A stretch of 64,000 bases of DNA from positions 139,237-203,236 of the forward strand of contig JAOACW010000002.1 of the NCBI GenBank assembly GCA_026417625.1, given 5' to 3'. Below the pieces are notes generated by a model, which was given only the letters and a program-made list of their open reading frames with translations, searched no databases and was not told the origin of the DNA. The stretch comes from Syntrophales bacterium (GTDB taxonomy: Bacteria; Desulfobacterota; Syntrophia; Syntrophales; UBA8958). The position numbers and the translations under genes were made by a program. Below are positions 3,622-50,291 of the stretch, piece by piece; position 1 is the stretch's first letter; each line of letters begins with the position of its first letter.

Positions 3622-4155
3622 TTAAAACCCGAAAGTCATCAGTTGATACGCCCTTTCTGCTATGTCAGTAGCAAGTTTGGAAATTGATTTCGATCGTGCA
3701 ATTTCCCTTTCAGATAGGGTAACTGCGAAATAGTCCGCCGTTCCCTGAAAGGCAGGATTGGACCATATGATTTCTCCTTTAGATCTGTCTTTGAGTTTAA
3801 CATCGAGGGTGAGATGAAGACGTTCTTCCAGTGCATAGTTTGAGGTTGATTGAGAAAGAGTTGATGACTTCAGATCGACAATTTTTATTTCTAGAACAGC
3901 ATCTGCCTCTTCTGGACAGGCAACAACCTGAAAAATTCCTCCTTTTATGAGCCATTCGATAAATGCTGATTTTATGGTGTTTTCTATGTATGCTTCGTTC
4001 GTTTTATTTACGACAGGTTCTACGTAAATTTTCCGTATGTGTGGAGCTCTGTGAACAGACGCTTCCTTTACACTGTGATATCCGCATGCGCTGAATAGTA
4101 TAGCCGAAATCACCATAATTAGACTCATAACGGAACTTTTTTCTTTACTAAGCAT
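3622..4155 (-). CDS. lptE: LptE-like LPS-assembly lipoprotein
   Basis: Lipobox ..ILFSACGYH.. resembles the LptE signature. Position immediately downstream of leuS (8-nt overlap) is the classical leuS-lptE arrangement. The start could instead be ATG 4128. Confidence 0.65.
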
Positions 4156-6730
4156 CTTTGACCACGATATTGATCAATTTTTTGGGTACGTAGAATTCTT
4201 TCACAATCGTTTTGCCGGCTGTGAATTTCTGAACCCTTTCGTCAGCCAGAGCTAAGGACTTGATGGTGTTCTCTTCTTCGTCTGCGGGAACTGTTATGCG
4301 ACTTCTCACTTTACCGTTAACTTGGACCACTATTGTAATCTCTTCTTCAGTGGCAACTGCTGGATCGTATTCTGGCCAGGGGGTGTTGCACAGCATCTCT
4401 CTCATACCGAGATGACTCCAGAGTTCTTCGGCGAAATGAGGAACAATGGGGGATAGGAGTTTAAGCAGGGTTTCAATGGTTTCCCTTATTACACTTAGGC
4501 CTAAACTATCTGATGGTTTAGGTGTCGCATATAGTGCGTTTACTAGTTCCATAATAGCGCTTATTGCTGTGTTGAAGTGGTACCTATCCTCAATATCCCT
4601 CGTGACTTTTCTCACCGTCTGGTGGGTTTTTTTTCTGAGCGCTTTTATCTCACCTTCAATGGCTTCTGGACTGGAACAGGTTGGAATGTTCTTTATTTCA
4701 TCCAAGTAATCAACAATGATTCTCCATGCACGATTGAGAAAACGAAAGATCCCTTCCACCCCCTGATCGTTCCACTCTAGATCTTTTTCGGGCGGGGCGG
4801 CGAAAAGACAGAACATCCTCACAGTATCTGCGCCGTACTTTTCCACGAGATAATCTGGATCTACCACATTCTTCAAAGATTTGGACATTTTTTCAACTTT
4901 TCCTATTACAACTGGCAATTGACAATGTTTGCATTTACCGTTTTCCACTTCGTACGGGTACAGATATCCATGAGTCGGGCACTTGGTGCTCTCTTTGCAA
5001 ACCATGCCTTGTGTAAGTAAATTTATAAAAGGTTCGTCAAATCCTAGAATCCCGAAATCTCTCAGCACCTTTGTATAAAATCTGGAGTACAGTAGGTGTA
5101 ATATGGCATGTTCAATTCCCCCTATGTACTGATCTACAGGCATCCAGTAATCCAGTTTTTCACGGTCCAGACCAGGTTTTTTGTCGTAATTGGCACAGCA
5201 GAACCGGTTAAAGTACCATGAAGACTCCACAAAGGTATCCATGGTGTCAGTTTCCCTCTTTGCGGGACCTCTGCAGTTTGGACATGAGGTGTTCAGAAAA
5301 GCTTCGTTTTTTGCCAGGGGTGATCCCCCCTCACCTGTAAACTCCACGTCTTTTGGAAGAATAACGGGTAAGTCCTCTTCAGGGACGGTAACGATACCAC
5401 ACTTGTCGCAGTATACTACGGGTATAGGTGCTCCCCAGTAGCGCTGTCTTGAAATACCCCAATCACGCAGACGGTACTGGACCGTTCTTTTACCCAGACC
5501 CATTTTTTCCAGATAGTCAGCAATTTTGTCCATCGCATCTCTATTTTCAAGGCCGTTGAAAGGTCCAGAATTTACGAGAACCCCGTCTCCCTCGTACGCT
5601 CTTTCCATTGTTTGTATGTTTAGGGCTTTTTGGTGAGGTTGTATAACGATGATGATGGGGAGATTGTATTTCCTGGCAAATTCGAAGTCCCTCTGATCGT
5701 GAGCAGGAACGGCCATGACGCACCCTGTGCCGTAGTCTGCGAGAACGAAGTTGGCGGCATAAATAGGCATTTTACGTTTGGTTACTGGATTTAAGCAATA
5801 AGTACCGAGGAAGATACCTTCTTTTTCATAGAAATCGGAGGTTCTTAGAATTTTATCCTGCTTTTTGATCTTATCAACCCATTCTCGAACCTCTATTTCA
5901 CGGTCCTTTCCCTTAACAAGTTCCATGACCAATGGGTGTTCCGCCGCGATCAACATAAAAGTCGCACCGAAAATTGTATCCTGTCGAGTAGTAAACACTT
6001 TAATTTCTCCATTTCCATCGGCCATAGGGAATGTAATTTCGCATCCGTAACTTCTCCCAATCCAATTCTTTTGCATGGTGAGCACACGCTCCGGCCAGCC
6101 TTTTAGTTTGTCGCAATAGTCCAGCAGTTCTTCTACATAGGCGGTTATGCGGAAAAACCATTGTTCTAGTTCACGGATAGTAACTTCACTTGAACATCTC
6201 CAGCACAAACCACCTTCAACTTGCTCATTTGCAAGTACCGTTTGACACTGGGGACACCAGTTGACAAAAGAGGATTTTTTGTACGCTAGACCTTTTTCAT
6301 ACATCCACAGGAAGAATAGCTGTTCCCAACGGTAGTACTCAGGTTCGCATGTGGAAATCTCTCTTTCCCAGTCATAGCTAAATCCTAAACGTTTGAGTTG
6401 TTGCCTCATGGTGGTTATATTTTCGTTGGTCCAGATGGCCGGATGAATCCCATGGGCAATAGCAGCATTTTCAGCGGGCATTCCAAAAGCATCCCATCCC
6501 ATGGGATGTAACACGTTAAACCCTTTCATTTTTTTGTAACGGGCAATTACATCACCGATTGTGTAGTTGCGCACATGCCCCATATGGATTTTACCTGAGG
6601 GATAAGGGAACATCTCGAGAAGGTAGTACTTAGGTTTTGAAGTGTCCTCTTCAACGTGAAAGGTTTTGTTCTCCTCCCATATTTTTTGCCATTTCACTTC
6701 AATTTCTTGAGGATTATAACGGAGGTTCAT
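4148..6730 (-). CDS. leuS: Leucyl-tRNA synthetase
   Basis: 860 aa with [11 protein letters not shown] (HIGH) and KMSKS motifs and a CP1 editing region. Confidence 0.97.
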
Positions 6731-6873
6731 GGTTGCCTCCCTGAAAGAGATTTTATTTTGACATCCGTAGCATATATGCAGGCGTAATTCAATATATACA
6801 ACTAATCGTGTTGTTGAAATTTCCTCAGTGATTTTGTTTATGCGAGGTCGTAATGGGTTGAGAGCTTAGAGCA

Positions 6874-8052
6874 TCAAACACCCGCTGCCTTTCTAAGAAT
6901 CTCAACCATGTCTGTTCTTTCCCATGGATAATCATCGAGGAAGAAGGTGACTGGGATTCTTCTGTAGATATCTCCGTTGAGGAGATCAAAACGCTCAATC
7001 ATCGCTCCGGGACGGAGATCAAATAGTTCAGATACAATTTTGTCAAGCTGGCGATCAGGGATTATTCCTGTTCCAAATGTGTTTACGTATATTGAGAATG
7101 GTCTAGCTATACCTATGGCGTAAGACAATTGTACTGAACACTTTTGTGCCAATCCTGCAGCAACAATGTTTTTTGCCACGTAGCGAGCTCCGAATGCAGC
7201 AGAGCAATCCACCTTCTCCGGCGACTTGTTAACCACTGAACCACCGCCAACCTGTGCTCCTGGATATCCTCCGTAAAAATAGACAACCAACTTGCGGCCT
7301 GTTACACCTGAGTCGGCAGCGCTACATGAGTTTACCGCCTGCCACTCACCGGTGGGATTGAACAAAAATTCTGTTTTTTTATCCACCCATTCCTTAAGGC
7401 ATGTGAAGGCAATTTTTTTAGCTTTTTCTTTCACCTTCTCTTTATTTCCCTTTACAAATCTGTAATCTACAGCATTGGAAACAAGCACTTTGACTAACCT
7501 TTTTGGCTTTCCTGTTTTATCGTCGTATTCAACCGAAACCTGCCCTTTACCGTCGGGTGCAAAAACAGGATCACCACACCTTTCAAAAGCTCTCATAAGT
7601 CGGCTAACCAACACGTATGGTAATGGCAATAACTCCGGCGTTTCGTCACAGGCGAAACCATACATTATGCCTTGGTCGCCTGCCCCCACCTCTCTTTCTA
7701 CGTTGTGCTCCATGCTAGTACCCAGGTTTATATCGGGGGATTGGGGTATAATTGCATTTAACACCCCCATTACATTGCCGTCGAGCCCCACGGCTGAGCT
7801 GTTGTAACCTATTTTTAGAACCGTTTCTCTAGCAATCCGCTCAACCTCCACATTTACCCTAGTTCTTACTTCACCACCAACTAGGCATAATCCTTTCCCG
7901 AGGAATACCTCGAGACCACAATGAGGCATGTTTTGCAAAGACAACCCCAATTGCTTTTCTTTGTCGAGGATATCAGCAATGATATGGGCAGCTATCATAT
8001 CAGCGACGATGTCAGGATGACCAATCTTTACGCTTTCTGCTGTAATTTGCAT
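6874..8052 (-). CDS. metK: S-adenosylmethionine synthetase (divergent MetK)
   Basis: GHPDIVAD, GAGDQGIMYGFA, ..TGRK.., ..ARYVAKNIVAAGLA.. and ..FDLRPG.. align with MetK. Several otherwise conserved positions differ (see findings). Confidence 0.85.
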   Translation of the reverse strand: MQITAESVKIGHPDIVADMIAAHIIADILDKEKQLGLSLQNMPHCGLEVFLGKGLCLVGGEVRTRVNVEVERIARETVLKIGYNSSAVGLDGNVMGVLNAIIPQSPDINLGTSMEHNVEREVGAGDQGIMYGFACDETPELLPLPYVLVSRLMRAFERCGDPVFAPDGKGQVSVEYDDKTGKPKRLVKVLVSNAVDYRFVKGNKEKVKEKAKKIAFTCLKEWVDKKTEFLFNPTGEWQAVNSCSAADSGVTGRKLVVYFYGGYPGAQVGGGSVVNKSPEKVDCSAAFGARYVAKNIVAAGLAQKCSVQLSYAIGIARPFSIYVNTFGTGIIPDRQLDKIVSELFDLRPGAMIERFDLLNGDIYRRIPVTFFLDDYPWERTDMVEILRKAAGV

Positions 8053-8182
8053 TTTTTAATCCTCCTCAGGGGTAAATAAAAAACCCGCACCAAAGCACGG
8101 GTTTAAACTGTGTATTTTAGCTTGGTGCTTTAGCACATTTATATAGCGGAGCAAGTTACCCTTAAATCACCGCTGTGTGAGC
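8053..8182 (-). promoter_or_regulatory. About 130-nt metK 5' leader with mutually exclusive terminator/antiterminator pairings (candidate riboswitch or attenuator)
   Basis: Reading the minus strand 5'->3': a 5-bp stem AGCGG..CCGCU enclosing 20 nt, then the hairpin GUGC-UAAA-GCAC, then the terminator. GCACCAAG (8121-8128) can pair with UUUGGUGC (8087-8094) of the terminator. Confidence 0.5.
8075..8101 (-). terminator. Intrinsic terminator inside the metK leader
   Basis: Minus-strand RNA CCCGUGC-UUUG-GUGCGGG (5 GC pairs and 2 GU pairs), followed by UUUUUUAUUU. The GU pairs mean the stem is intact only in the minus-strand transcript. It lies about 25 nt upstream of the AGGAGG RBS. Confidence 0.65.
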
Positions 8183-8210
8183 ACATTACCACATGGAGGA
8201 AGTATGTCAA
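8183..8210 (-). promoter_or_regulatory. Sigma-70-type promoter for metK
   Basis: Minus strand TTGACA (8210-8205), 16-nt spacer, TAATGT (8188-8183). Confidence 0.55.
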
Positions 8211-8232
8211 GGAAAATTAGCCAGAGTGGATT

Positions 8233-8658
8233 CTATTTTTCCATCTTGCTGTATATCGCATCAAGTATACCGTTTATAAAGGCTCCCGAGTTTTCCGTCC
8301 CGTAAAGTTTTCCGAGGTCAATAGCTTCATTTATGGTTACTTTAGGTGGAATGTCATTACAGTAGAGCAACTCGTATACTGCCATTCGGAGTATACATCT
8401 ATCTACTACCGCCATGCGACTTATTGTCCAATGTTCTGAATAGTTGCCTATAATGGAATCTATTTCGTCACGATGTTCCCATACGCCCTGGACGAGTCTG
8501 AGGGAAAAATCACGGATGTCCTTCCCATCACTGATATCCTCTGGAATCCCATATATTTGGAAATAGAGTTCGAAGGCCTCTTCTACATCTCTGTTGTAGA
8601 TATCCAAACTGTAAAGGATCTGGAGGGCAATTTCCCTCGACCTTCTCCTGCGGTGCAT
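8233..8658 (-). CDS. nusB: Transcription antitermination factor NusB
   Basis: 141 aa with RRRSREIALQILY.. and ..AVYELLY..DIPPKVTINEAIDL... It follows ribH, as in many bacteria. Confidence 0.93.
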   Translation of the reverse strand: MHRRRRSREIALQILYSLDIYNRDVEEAFELYFQIYGIPEDISDGKDIRDFSLRLVQGVWEHRDEIDSIIGNYSEHWTISRMAVVDRCILRMAVYELLYCNDIPPKVTINEAIDLGKLYGTENSGAFINGILDAIYSKMEK

Positions 8659-8671
8659 CGAAGTTGTGCAT

Positions 8672-9139
8672 TTAAATCTTTCTGAAAAGATCTACCATTT
8701 CGATTGCCGTTATGGCGGCATCCCAGCCTTTATTGCCCGATTTTGTACCCGCTCTTTCGATGGCCTGCTCAATGGTATCCGTTGTTAAAACACCGAAAGC
8801 TATTGGTATCTCTGTTTCCAGGGTTACGTTGGCTATTCCTTTTGAAACCTCAGCCGCTATGTATTCGAAGTGCGGCGTAGCACCACGGATTATGGCTCCG
8901 AGACAAATGATTGCATCAAAACGTCCACTTTTTGCTAACTTTTTTGCAACGAGTGGGAGTTCAAAGGCTCCTGGGACCTTAACAATATAGAGGTCTTTCT
9001 CCTCTGCTCCTGCTCTTGTAAGGGCGTCGATCGCTCCTTCGATGAGGCGCCCGCTGATAAATTCGTTGAAGCGACTCGCCACAATGGCGAATTTCATTCC
9101 TTTAGCAACGATTTTCCCTTCCACAGTTTTTACAGGCAT
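8672..9139 (-). CDS. ribH: 6,7-dimethyl-8-ribityllumazine synthase
   Basis: ..[12 protein letters not shown].., ..VPGAFELP.. and ..[15 protein letters not shown].. motifs. Confidence 0.95.
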
Positions 9140-9157
9140 GTTTATTGACCTCTGATT

Positions 9158-10354
9158 TTATAGTAAGTGTCCTAATTTCTGTTTTTTTGTTTTAAGGTAG
9201 TGGACATTGTTGACGTTGGGTTCGATTACGATGGGAACCCTTTCAACTATCTGTATGCCGTAACCTTCAAGGCCGACAATTTTTTTGGGGTTGTTTGTCA
9301 TGAGTCGCATCTTTCGCACTCCCAGATCTGCAAGAATCTGGGCACCAATACCGTAGTCCCGCAGGTCTGGCTTAAACCCGAGGGCGATGTTCGCTTCAAC
9401 CGTATCTTTACCCTGTTCCTGAAGGGCGTAAGCGCGGATTTTGTTTACAAGTCCTATACCTCGCCCCTCCTGTCTCATATAAACGATGACACCTTTTCCC
9501 TCCTGTTTTACCATTTCCATAGCTCGATGAAGTTGATCACCGCAATCACACCGTTCTGATCCGAATACGTCGCCTGTTACGCATTCAGAATGCACCCTTA
9601 CGAGAACTGCTTCATCGGGTTTTATTTCTCCCTTGACGAGCGCTATGTGCTGTAAATCATCTACATCGTTTTCGTATACTGTTACCTTGAACTCACCTCC
9701 CCAGCGAGTGGGCAGAGTTGCTGATGCCACTCGTCGGATTAAGGATTCGTGTTTTAACCTGTAATTGATTATGTCCGCTATAGTTACTATTTTTAGATTG
9801 TGCTCGGCGGCGAATTTTTCAAGGTCAGGCATTCTCGCCATCGTCCCATCGTCCTTCATAATTTCGCAGATCACCGCTGCCGGTTTTAGTCCAGCTAATC
9901 GGGCAAGGTCCACGGACCCTTCTGTTTGACCCGTACGGACAAGAACACCTCCTTTTCTCGCACGGATAGGAAATACGTGACCGGGACTCACCAAATCTTC
10001 GGGTTTTGCGTCATCAGCAACTGCCGTTAAGATCGTTGTAGCTCTGTCATGGGCTGAAATTCCAGTTGTTACACCCCTTCTGGCTTCAATGGAAACTGTG
10101 AATGCCGTTCCGAAGCGGGATCTGTTTTCCGGAACCATGGGTTTTAGGCCCAATCTATCCGCATGTTCCTCTGTTAGTGTCAGGCAGATCAATCCGCGAC
10201 CGTACTTTGCCATGAAGTTTATGGCCTCAGGTGTCACAAACTGAGCTGCCATGCAAAGATCACCTTCATTTTCTCTGTCTTCATCGTCCACTAAAATTAC
10301 CATCTTTCCCTGACGAATATCTTCAAGTGCCTCAGGTATGGAGCTTATGGGCAT
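9158..10354 (-). CDS. ribBA: Bifunctional 3,4-dihydroxy-2-butanone-4-phosphate synthase / GTP cyclohydrolase II
   Basis: 398 aa. N-terminal DRENEGDL (RibB); C-terminal ..VRVHSECVTGDVFGSERCDCG.. (RibA). Confidence 0.95.
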   Translation of the reverse strand: MPISSIPEALEDIRQGKMVILVDDEDRENEGDLCMAAQFVTPEAINFMAKYGRGLICLTLTEEHADRLGLKPMVPENRSRFGTAFTVSIEARRGVTTGISAHDRATTILTAVADDAKPEDLVSPGHVFPIRARKGGVLVRTGQTEGSVDLARLAGLKPAAVICEIMKDDGTMARMPDLEKFAAEHNLKIVTIADIINYRLKHESLIRRVASATLPTRWGGEFKVTVYENDVDDLQHIALVKGEIKPDEAVLVRVHSECVTGDVFGSERCDCGDQLHRAMEMVKQEGKGVIVYMRQEGRGIGLVNKIRAYALQEQGKDTVEANIALGFKPDLRDYGIGAQILADLGVRKMRLMTNNPKKIVGLEGYGIQIVERVPIVIEPNVNNVHYLKTKKQKLGHLL

Positions 10355-10358
10355 GTCA

Positions 10359-11009
10359 TCACCTCACAAAACCGTGCTTCTGCAAAAATTCCAGAGTTAT
10401 TCTTTCTTCTTTAGTTTTTTCTTTTAAACTCACGAATTTCTCGATGTATTTACCGATAATGTCTGTTTCGATGTTTACCTGGTCACCGATTTTCTTCATT
10501 GTTAAAGTAGTTACACTTGCTGTGTGGGGAATGATATTCACGTAAAAACAATTGTCAAGTACACGATTCACTGTAAGACTCACACCATCGACCGCAATTG
10601 ATCCTTTTTCCACAATGTACCTCATAAGCTCGTTTTTAGTTTCGATGGCAATTACGGTCGAGGAGACTTTCGTTTCCTTTATCTTTATGTAACCAATTCC
10701 GTCTACATGCCCCAAAACGAAATGACCACCCAAAAAATCTGTCGGTCTTAGAGGTTTTTCTAGGTTGACCAGAGACTCCAATTTCAAATTACCGAGGGTG
10801 GTTCGGTTCAGCGTTTCTGCTGAAACGTCTGCAGTGAATTCATTTACTGAAACGCGTGTAATCGTAAGACAAACTCCATCGACAGCTATGCTGTCCCCGA
10901 TCTTCAGATCCTCAAGGTTCAAGTTTGTTTTAATTACAATGCGTGCACCTTCACCTTGTTTACTTAACTGTTTAACTTTGCCAAGATTCTGTATAATTCC
11001 TGTAAACAC
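10359..11009 (-). CDS. ribE: Riboflavin synthase
   Basis: MFTGIIQ..GDSIAVDGVCLT.. with the duplicated ..GSIAVDGVSLTV.. repeat. Confidence 0.95.
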   Translation of the reverse strand: MFTGIIQNLGKVKQLSKQGEGARIVIKTNLNLEDLKIGDSIAVDGVCLTITRVSVNEFTADVSAETLNRTTLGNLKLESLVNLEKPLRPTDFLGGHFVLGHVDGIGYIKIKETKVSSTVIAIETKNELMRYIVEKGSIAVDGVSLTVNRVLDNCFYVNIIPHTASVTTLTMKKIGDQVNIETDIIGKYIEKFVSLKEKTKEERITLEFLQKHGFVR

Positions 11010-18375: not shown

Positions 18376-18447
18376 GGTCCTATCGTCTAGGGGTAAGGAC
18401 GCCGGCCTCTCACGCCGGAAACCGGGGTTCAAATCCCCGTAGGACCA
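18376..18447 (+). tRNA. tRNA-Glu (anticodon CUC)
   Basis: Manual cloverleaf: acceptor GGTCCTA/TAGGACC, D arm GTCT-AGGGGTAA-GGAC, anticodon arm CCGGC-CTCTCAC-GCCGG, T arm CGGGG-TTCAAAT-CCCCG, discriminator A. CCA is not encoded. Confidence 0.9.
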
Positions 18448-50206: not shown

Positions 50207-50291
50207 TGCCGGAGGTGGGATTCGAACCCACATGACCTCAGGGGTCGGGGGATTTTGAGTCCCCTGCGTCTACCAGTTTCACCACTCCGGC
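50207..50291 (-). tRNA. tRNA-Leu (anticodon CAA)
   Basis: Manual cloverleaf: acceptor GCCGGAG/CTCCGGC, anticodon arm GGGGA-CTCAAAA-TCCCC, long variable arm GACC-CCTGA-GGTC, T arm GTGGG-TTCGAAT-CCCAC, discriminator A. 85 nt. Confidence 0.9.

Follow-up and report, generated by a model that had tools for sequence, protein, structure and literature searches.

What controls metK, the gene for S-adenosylmethionine (SAM) synthetase, in a Syntrophales bacterium in which this gene is preceded by a 180-nucleotide (nt) intergenic region? We addressed this question in a 64,000-nt stretch of contig JAOACW010000002.1 (hereafter the window; coordinates count from its first letter), where metK lies on the minus strand at 6874-8052. 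An earlier note, made by a model from the letters and their open reading frames (ORFs), had described the metK leader as having its own promoter, a structured 5' untranslated region and terminator/antiterminator logic, and this general picture holds. We put at roughly 0.8 the probability that the leader works as a SAM riboswitch of the SAM-II class (the pseudoknot fold of SAM-II and SAM-V) coupled to an intrinsic terminator, and most likely a transcriptional off-switch. The match to the SAM-II/SAM-V core bears out a guess in the earlier note that the leader might hold a small pseudoknot-type SAM sensor. The leader is most likely a divergent SAM-II type, in a lineage and a sequence form that Rfam models score below their cut-offs.

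The aptamer occupies 8124-8174 and, to judge from its bases and those of its homologues, most likely folds as an H-type pseudoknot. Its elements, in the order in which they would be transcribed, are as follows.

8170-8174, minus strand: 5' strand of P1, AGCGG, pairs with 8145-8149.
8162-8169, minus strand: L1, UGAUUUAA; A-U-U-U at 8164-8167 is the putative third strand of a triplex.
8158-8160, minus strand: 5' strand of P2a, GGU, inside the P1 loop, pairs with ACC at 8124-8126.
8151-8154, minus strand: 5' strand of P2b, UUGC, invariant; complementary to GC(U)AA at 8130-8134 and aligned to CUUGC of RF00521.
8145-8149, minus strand: 3' strand of P1, CCGCU, pairs with 8170-8174.
8135-8144, minus strand: L3 linker, AUAUAAAUGU, 10 nt, A-rich; the A run at 8138-8140 is invariant.
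8130-8134, minus strand: 3' strand of P2b, GC-U-AA, invariant in 36 distinct sequences.
8125-8136, minus strand: the repeat GUGC-UAAA-GCAC, GUGCUAAAGCAC.
8124-8126, minus strand: 3' strand of P2a, ACC, covaries with 8158-8160.

P1 is the 5-base-pair (bp) AGCGG/CCGCU stem that the earlier note had placed here, and it closes a 20-nt loop, UGAUUUAAGGGUAACUUGCU. All of the binding-core bases of the SAM-II class are in the window element: AUUU after P1, UUGC in the loop, and GC-U-AAA with its bulged U. An A-rich linker without a P3 hairpin, a feature of the SAM-II type, is present as well; at just 10 nt, it leaves no space for P3. L1 aligns to the GAUUU consensus of RF00521 (SAM_alpha) and to A7-U10 of the SAM-V metY riboswitch, and the 3' strand of P2b has its counterparts in GCUAAAg of RF00521 and UGCUAAAgCA of RF01726. 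When the window is set against the whole RF00521 consensus, CGUGGuGAUUUGac..GGCUUGCAgCCACGUUAAAcAAgU.CGCUAAAgAGGCC, the motifs GAUUU, CUUGC and GCUAAAG are exact, in the same order and with the same spacing, and they fall at SAM-V contact positions. The earlier note had called the leader possibly unclassified and its motifs only loosely reminiscent of SAM-II/SAM-V, which understates the match. A second AAGCUAAAA (8114-8122), considered as the pseudoknot strand, is not conserved in homologues, and we rejected it.

We compared the window with the solved structure of SAM-V metY (PMC6061858), in which P1 is followed by a third strand, A7-U8-U9-U10, that forms base triples and contacts a bulged U. 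In its P2, U19, U20 and G21 pair with A49, A48 and C46; the SAM adenine is the partner of the bulged U47, and A41 and A42 lie in the minor groove of P1 (PMC6061858). The window matches this layout position by position, with P1, UG-AUUU (8164-8167), UUGC (8151-8154) opposite GC-U-AA (8130-8134), and the linker. By analogy, the bulged U8132 would be the partner of the SAM adenine, the L3 linker would be equivalent to the A-rich strand in the P1 minor groove of SAM-V, and the window bases would correspond to the contacts in 6FZ0, where a major-groove triple helix encloses SAM. We infer that SAM is the ligand because the pocket bases are conserved, the regulated gene makes SAM, and a related metK has a SAM-I riboswitch (see below).

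We gathered related loci through MetK protein homology, not through the RNA, and obtained 84 metK upstream regions. When genome contigs were scanned with an alignment of full-length MetK, the universal GAGDQGIM motif dominated the matches and only three close relatives came out; the scan of metagenomes used an alignment of MetK N-terminal fragments. The leader is present at 47 of the 84 retrieved loci, and also at all four of the further MetK homologues that were checked individually. This alignment of related upstream regions, a check named in the earlier note, finds the leader conserved in 51 loci. The MetK homologues (73-96% identity; product methionine adenosyltransferase) are named Smithellaceae, Smithella or Syntrophales wherever their source names them. 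We built a covariance model from 20 leaders, with which the 51 instances, from Syntrophales/Smithella-like genomes and metagenomes, score 67-85 bits. All 51 lie upstream of metK and on its strand. A place in the 5' leader of a methionine/SAM gene is typical of the class, as is an expression platform of the kind described below. With the model, the window has a single match, and no further copy came to light there or in 64 motif-negative or distant loci. The gene upstream of the leader varies (nusB in the window and in the relatives L161 and L162, a GAF-HD gene in L163, and other genes elsewhere). Since the leader accompanies metK whatever gene is upstream, we regard it as a metK element and not as a terminator of nusB.

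We tested the aptamer structure on the 36 distinct aptamer sequences among the instances of the model, using 500 shuffles and slid controls. The pseudoknot model pairs in 98.1% of cells, compared with 59% or fewer for the slid controls. Both the covariation score and the count of cells changed on both sides lie above all 500 shuffles, a result that is not to be read as a probability because the sequences are related to each other. P1 pairs in 100% of cells, its outer pair being A:U in 34 sequences, C:G in one and U·G in one. The outer pair of P2a is G:C in 11, A:U in 10, G·U in nine and U:A in two; the four rows that do not pair all belong to a single clade, which we call the L081 clade, and pair as GGU/GCC once the 3' strand is shifted by one position. 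P1 and P2a hold one covarying pair each. These pairing counts support an H-type pseudoknot in which the P1 loop pairs with the 3' tail as P2a and P2b. The core bases are invariant in the 36 rows except for the first U of the third strand, which is G in one clade, while its A and last two U are invariant throughout; positions between the core elements vary. The invariance of P2b agrees with the fold and is uninformative on covariation, and that of P2b and the third strand together fits what would be expected of a ligand pocket.

These data bear on the possibility that we are looking at a chance resemblance, in which a promoter and a terminator-like hairpin stand before metK without any sensing. 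The window leader does not fold significantly better than its shuffles by z-score, and the E-values of its Rfam matches are 0.18-0.44, as one would expect of such a coincidence. We nevertheless find it hard to credit, given 51 conserved instances in which the loop varies and the core is invariant, and given that the pseudoknot, terminator and antiterminator all covary. The core pattern GATTT-N(5-20)-TTGC-N(10-25)-GCTAAA has one occurrence in the 64-kb window, against 0.09 expected. Nor are the instances assembly duplicates, since their aptamer rows include 36 distinct sequences and their upstream regions 41.

The aptamer is followed by an expression platform, with these parts.

8125-8132, minus strand: 5' strand of the antiterminator, UAAAGCAC, pairs with 8091-8098; overlaps the 3' strands of P2b and P2a.
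8081-8104, minus strand: intrinsic terminator hairpin, AAACCCGUGC-UUUG-GUGCGGGUUU, a terminator-scan match with 10 pairs.
8091-8098, minus strand: 3' strand of the antiterminator, GUGCUUUG; the end of the terminator 5' arm plus the loop.
Down to 8074, minus strand: U tract of the terminator, UUUUUUAUUU, from the scan (whole terminator 8074-8104).
8061-8067, minus strand: Shine-Dalgarno (SD) sequence of metK, GAGGAGG, outside the switch.
8050-8052, minus strand: ATG start codon of metK.

The terminator and its U tract, described in the earlier note, were recovered by the minus-strand scan. Its two G·U pairs (U·G and G·U) exist solely in the minus-strand RNA; the same is true of the G·U pairs of P2a, which also form only in the sense-strand RNA. 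The stem ends about 13-17 nt before GAGGAGG, closer than the ~25 nt that had been given. A strong terminator is found in all 38 distinct homologous leaders checked for one, and it covaries, with 95% of cells pairing and three pairs changed on both sides.

For the antiterminator, the earlier note had proposed that GCACCAAG (8121-8128) pairs with UUUGGUGC (8087-8094). The two strands are indeed complementary, but when antiterminator pairings were counted on 29 tail-plus-terminator constructs, only 60.8% of their cells paired, which is under the shuffle mean. We rejected this pairing in favor of UAAAGCAC/GUGCUUUG, which is conserved and covarying: 87.5% of cells pair and 12 cells are changed on both sides (C:G to G:C, A:U to G:C), a level reached by none of 500 shuffles. 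We also folded each transcript after cutting it just before the 3' arm of the terminator. In the window this pairing is then the minimum-energy fold, and an equivalent pairing is found in most homologues. Four loci (L106, L136, L151 and L159) apparently use another competitor, in which GCGGG of the P1 5' strand pairs with CCCGC of the terminator.

The small hairpin GUGC-UAAA-GCAC in the earlier note fared less well. Its sequence is present and 89.7% of cells pair, but the 5' side is invariant, no pair changes on both sides, and the pairing is broken in the L081 clade. We do not count it as a helix of its own: the same bases supply the pseudoknot with its 3' strand and the antiterminator with its 5' strand. 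As an inverted repeat, GTGC...GCAC also lends itself to a reading of the leader as a protein-dependent or otherwise ligand-independent attenuator, with the conserved sequence serving as a protein site or DNA operator. The very high nucleotide conservation with few covarying pairs would suit this, as would the terminator, whose fold has the lowest energy when no ligand is bound. However, the invariant bases coincide with the SAM-II/SAM-V core and not with a palindromic operator, P2a covaries through G·U intermediates that are meaningful only in RNA, and GUGC/GCAC is lost in one clade in which the pseudoknot strands persist. The earlier note had raised a protein-dependent attenuator itself, and nothing in the leader requires one; we regard this explanation as highly improbable. 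We also considered leader-peptide attenuation, since the invariant AUG-UGC-UAA is a two-codon frame, and rejected it from the sequence alone: no SD precedes the frame, and its bases are explained by P2.

We propose the following mechanism for a SAM-II-class switch at this locus. Transcription would start a few nt before P1, and the aptamer would form an H-type pseudoknot in which GC(U)AA...ACC of the 3' tail folds back to pair with the P1 loop, through P2b (UUGC) and P2a (GGU). The AUUU of the loop would line the major groove of P2b, supplying the third strand, and U8132 would pair with the adenine of SAM. At high SAM, the pseudoknot would hold UAAAGCAC, the terminator at 8081-8104 would form, RNA polymerase would stop in the U tract, and metK would be off. 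At low SAM, free UAAAGCAC would pair with GUGCUUUG and occupy the end of the terminator 5' arm and the loop, so that polymerase could read through into metK. The full leader prefers the terminator even without ligand, and regulation would thus have to be kinetic, decided during transcription.

Several observations weigh against a SAM-II-class riboswitch. (i) The support from covariation is narrow. Two of the 12 aptamer pairs covary and the rest are too conserved, P2b never varies, all sequences come from one MetK clade, and their relatedness limits what the shuffles can say, as noted above. (ii) Folding energies are not in its favor: the energy of the window leader is ordinary (z = -0.62; 54 of 200 shuffles fold equally well or better), which means that the case rests on conservation and not on energy, and, even when no ligand is present, the full leader reaches its energy minimum with the terminator formed. 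(iii) Nothing in the leader reaches an Rfam gathering score. At permissive thresholds, the sole riboswitch families on the correct strand, and the best matches there, are the SAM-II models, RF01726 (SAM-II long loop) with 17.4 bits against a gathering score of 44 and RF00521 with 12.9 bits against 36. SAM-V (RF01826) gives no match in the leader at E<=10, and 19 homologous leaders were likewise all below the gathering scores of Rfam. The SAM/SAH (S-adenosylhomocysteine) model RF01727 gives 13.5 bits (E = 0.33) at 8122-8153 on the plus strand, opposite to metK; scores as weak as these evidently arise by chance. (iv) The P1 loop can form a hairpin of its own, GAUUUA/UAAAUU, which is 95.4% conserved and excludes P2b. 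(v) The L081 clade (L081, L083-L086, L088, L095, L096 and L099) has GAGUU in place of GAUUU in the third strand.

With respect to the Rfam scores, a gathering score is an operational cut-off and not a structural definition of a class. A beta-proteobacterial element upstream of metX/metZ was published by Leyn et al. as new, being unexplained by known Rfam motifs (PMC4239095); McCown et al. later judged it canonical SAM-II and treated SAM-II and SAM-V as types of one class (PMC5473149). This reassignment shows directly that curated models can overlook genuine members of a class. The same scans dispose of other SAM riboswitches. As the earlier note had suggested, the leader is not SAM-I: SAM-I/SAM-IV (RF00162, RF00634 and RF01725) give no match at E<=10, and the aptamer has just ~50 nt. 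SAM-III (SMK box) and SAM-VI likewise give no match at E<=10 in the leader, and the SD is not within the aptamer. We rejected a SAM/SAH riboswitch since its sole match is on the wrong strand.

The loop hairpin lies at 8153-8168 on the minus strand (columns 11-16 with 23-28 of our alignment A5). One of its pairs changes from U:A to G:C in the L081 clade and is a U-C mismatch in the window and in L161. The hairpin may represent a ligand-free state. The L081 clade differs in further respects: its loop is 2 nt longer, the register of P2a is moved by one (GGU/GCC), its terminator has a UU bulge, and its antiterminator changes in step (AAAGGC with GCCUUU). Ligand recognition is possibly altered in this clade. 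Taken further, these features raise the idea that this is a third type within the SAM-II class, separate from both SAM-II and SAM-V, found only in Syntrophales-like bacteria and dedicated to metK, in which GAUUUA/UAAAUU would act as a decoy that sequesters the third strand and the 5' strand of P2b when ligand is absent (a three-state switch), perhaps with altered specificity in the L081 subgroup. We consider this unlikely, if worth keeping in mind.

The L081 clade also bears on whether the same fold might serve another ligand, namely SAH or another SAM-related metabolite, or might have changed its specificity in a subgroup. The G in this clade stands where SAM-V has a third-strand U in contact with the bulged U, and the loop of the clade is longer; the SAM-II models of Rfam fall far under their gathering scores; and SAM binding by the leader is argued by sequence comparison. 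Even so, no base aligned with a SAM contact of SAM-V is lost in the window or in most homologues; SAM, as the product of the regulated gene's enzyme, is the logical feedback signal for an off-switch; and a related metK (in locus L152) has a SAM-I riboswitch at the same place. A ligand other than SAM therefore seems to us quite improbable.

Transcription of the leader would depend on a promoter with these elements.

8205-8210, minus strand: -35 hexamer, TTGACA, from its sequence and from conserved spacing in homologues.
8183-8191, minus strand: extended -10 element, TGG plus TAATGT (TAATGT at 8183-8188).

The earlier note had read this promoter correctly as TTGACA-16-TAATGT, with a spacer of 16 nt. 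It is absent from the output of our consensus promoter scan because TAATGT agrees with the consensus at just three of six positions, which puts the hexamer under the scan threshold. The homologues make up for this: in 36 of the 41 distinct upstream regions of homologues, CTTGAC[AT] with a TG-extended -10 stands at a fixed distance ahead of the P1 stem, the -10 position reading TGTGATAAT, TGTGGTAGAAG and similar. Given this constant distance, the transcription start is probably at ~8175-8178, 1-4 nt ahead of P1. At the other end of the leader, the SD lies ~57 nt downstream of the aptamer 3' end (8124) and downstream of the terminator, and the aptamer therefore does not occlude it.

The gene downstream is metK.

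6874-8052, minus strand: metK (SAM synthetase), the regulated gene; Pfam PF00438, PF02772 and PF02773.

All three S-AdoMet synthetase domains are present in its product. On the minus strand the order of genes is ribE, ribBA, ribH, nusB (8233-8658), the intergenic region, metK and leuS. The order ribE-ribBA-ribH-nusB-[leader]metK-leuS (4148-11009 in the window, minus strand) is common to the closest relatives, L161 and L162, whose MetK proteins are 96% and 83% identical to that of the window; in farther relatives, metK and its leader stand behind other genes. Across the whole window, the sole Rfam matches at gathering score are tRNA genes at 18376-18447 (plus strand) and 50207-50291 (minus strand).

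A unit that runs from its own promoter to its own terminator is self-contained, and its main product might be a small RNA (sRNA) of ~100 nt that acts in trans, with control of metK secondary. In some homologues the unit lies up to ~390 nt upstream of metK, with repeat elements between, and there is a precedent in Sinorhizobium meliloti, where SAM binding to the metZ SAM-II riboswitch was predicted to terminate transcription and yield the sRNA RZ (PMC9373788). Yet the unit is upstream of metK on the metK strand in 51 of 51 loci and has a single copy in the window, and a function in trans would supplement control by a riboswitch, not replace it. We hold it very unlikely that an sRNA is the main purpose of the element.

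We note some variation in metK upstream regions. In twelve loci (L107, L108, L109, L112, L113, L116, L117, L121, L122, L125, L129 and L143), the aptamer and terminator are ~230-390 nt upstream of metK, and the gap contains one to several palindromic units, e.g. GAAACTCCAATTCCGAAAGCGCAGCGCAGCGGAATTGG and AGTCGAATTATCCCCGAAGCGTAGCGTAGGGGATTAATG, that look like insertions of the repetitive extragenic palindrome (REP) or miniature inverted-repeat transposable element (MITE) type. In others (among them L087, L089, L092, L103, L110, L124 and L130), metK follows by ~100 nt or less an ORF that ends in ...EEAFKLIMSGG.... In these motif-negative loci we found no promoter, aptamer or terminator between the upstream ORF and metK, which therefore appears to be co-transcribed without riboswitch control. 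A further group (L150, L156, L157 and L158; L003 is similar) has no aptamer; about 50-120 nt ahead of metK it carries another kind of leader block, rich in AT, with the pattern (A)TGATTTAACTAAAA..TATATGTG(C/T)TAAT(T/C)GC and a variable hairpin, e.g. GUGCUAA...UUAGCAC in L156. The block has no match to our own covariance model, and an Rfam scan of it in L156 gave nothing meaningful. It may be what is left of the aptamer or a separate control element of metK.

If the leader is a SAM-II-class riboswitch, it accounts for the control of metK in syntrophic and mostly uncultured anaerobes of the Smithella/Syntrophales group, and widens the range of the class to a new lineage and to metK as a target. 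In the literature we found no description of SAM-II in Deltaproteobacteria or Syntrophales, nor of a riboswitch in the Smithella/Syntrophales group. The leader would also be another case in which curated covariance models miss relatives of a small pseudoknot riboswitch, and a model of the 51 sequences could serve annotation pipelines. With its naturally minimal P1 and P2a and its competing loop hairpin, it offers structural biologists a compact variant in which to examine the coupling between the SAM-II fold and a terminator. It opens no new kind of biology.

Among known systems, the leader is closest to SAM-II (RF00521), which occurs in metA, metX, metY and metZ leaders of alpha- and beta-proteobacteria. 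Both have the same H-type pseudoknot, a 4-bp P2b and an A-rich linker without P3, and both serve methionine/SAM metabolism genes, in SAM-II mostly through transcription termination. By the criteria of Fig. S5 in PMC6061858, SAM-II has a P1 of at least 6 bp, a 4-bp P2 and no P3, whereas SAM-V has a 4-bp P1, a 6-bp P2 and usually P3; with its 5-bp P1, 4-bp P2b and no P3, the window element is nearest to SAM-II, although its P1 is short. It further differs from SAM-II in P2a, which is a G+C-rich GGCC-type helix there and only 3 bp (GGU/ACC) here, and in a P1 loop that is able to form its own hairpin. The target and host differ too: the SAM-II targets in a survey of alpha-proteobacteria are metY, metA, metX and hom, with metK not among them (PMC4239095), and the present hosts are Syntrophales/Smithella-like.

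The SAM-II long loop family (RF01726; Bacteroidetes and marine metagenomes, PMC2864571) is the best-scoring family for the window. Its P1 and its 3' element, AAAUGCUAAAgCA, match the window (AAAUGUGCUAAAGCA) nearly base for base, but its loop is not matched and is skipped as a local end, and the taxa differ. SAM-V (RF01826; Pelagibacter metY/bhmT; 6FZ0) shares the core, with an AUUU third strand, UUG/C-(U)-AA, a bulged U and minor-groove A residues; the 3' strand of P2 reads GUACUAAA in metY and GUGCUAAA in the window, and P1 is short in both. Most SAM-V riboswitches, in contrast, have a P3 hairpin, a 6-bp P2 and a 4-bp P1 and act on translation by occluding the SD, where the window has no P3 and a terminator platform.

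SAM-I (S-box) riboswitches before metK play the same role, that of a SAM-dependent terminator off-switch in the leader, through an unrelated fold of ~100 nt with a four-way junction. A true SAM-I riboswitch (RF00162, 56 bits against a gathering score of 44.4; L152:1338-1433, plus strand) occupies this position before the metK of L152, whose product is ~70% identical over the N-terminal 80 residues. Closely related metK genes would thus use two unrelated classes of SAM riboswitch at one position. The fold, pocket and logic of the window element are those of the SAM-II class and hence already known; what is new here is the Syntrophales-like host, the metK target, the 5-bp P1, the 3-bp P2a, the loop hairpin and the failure of three Rfam models to recognize it.

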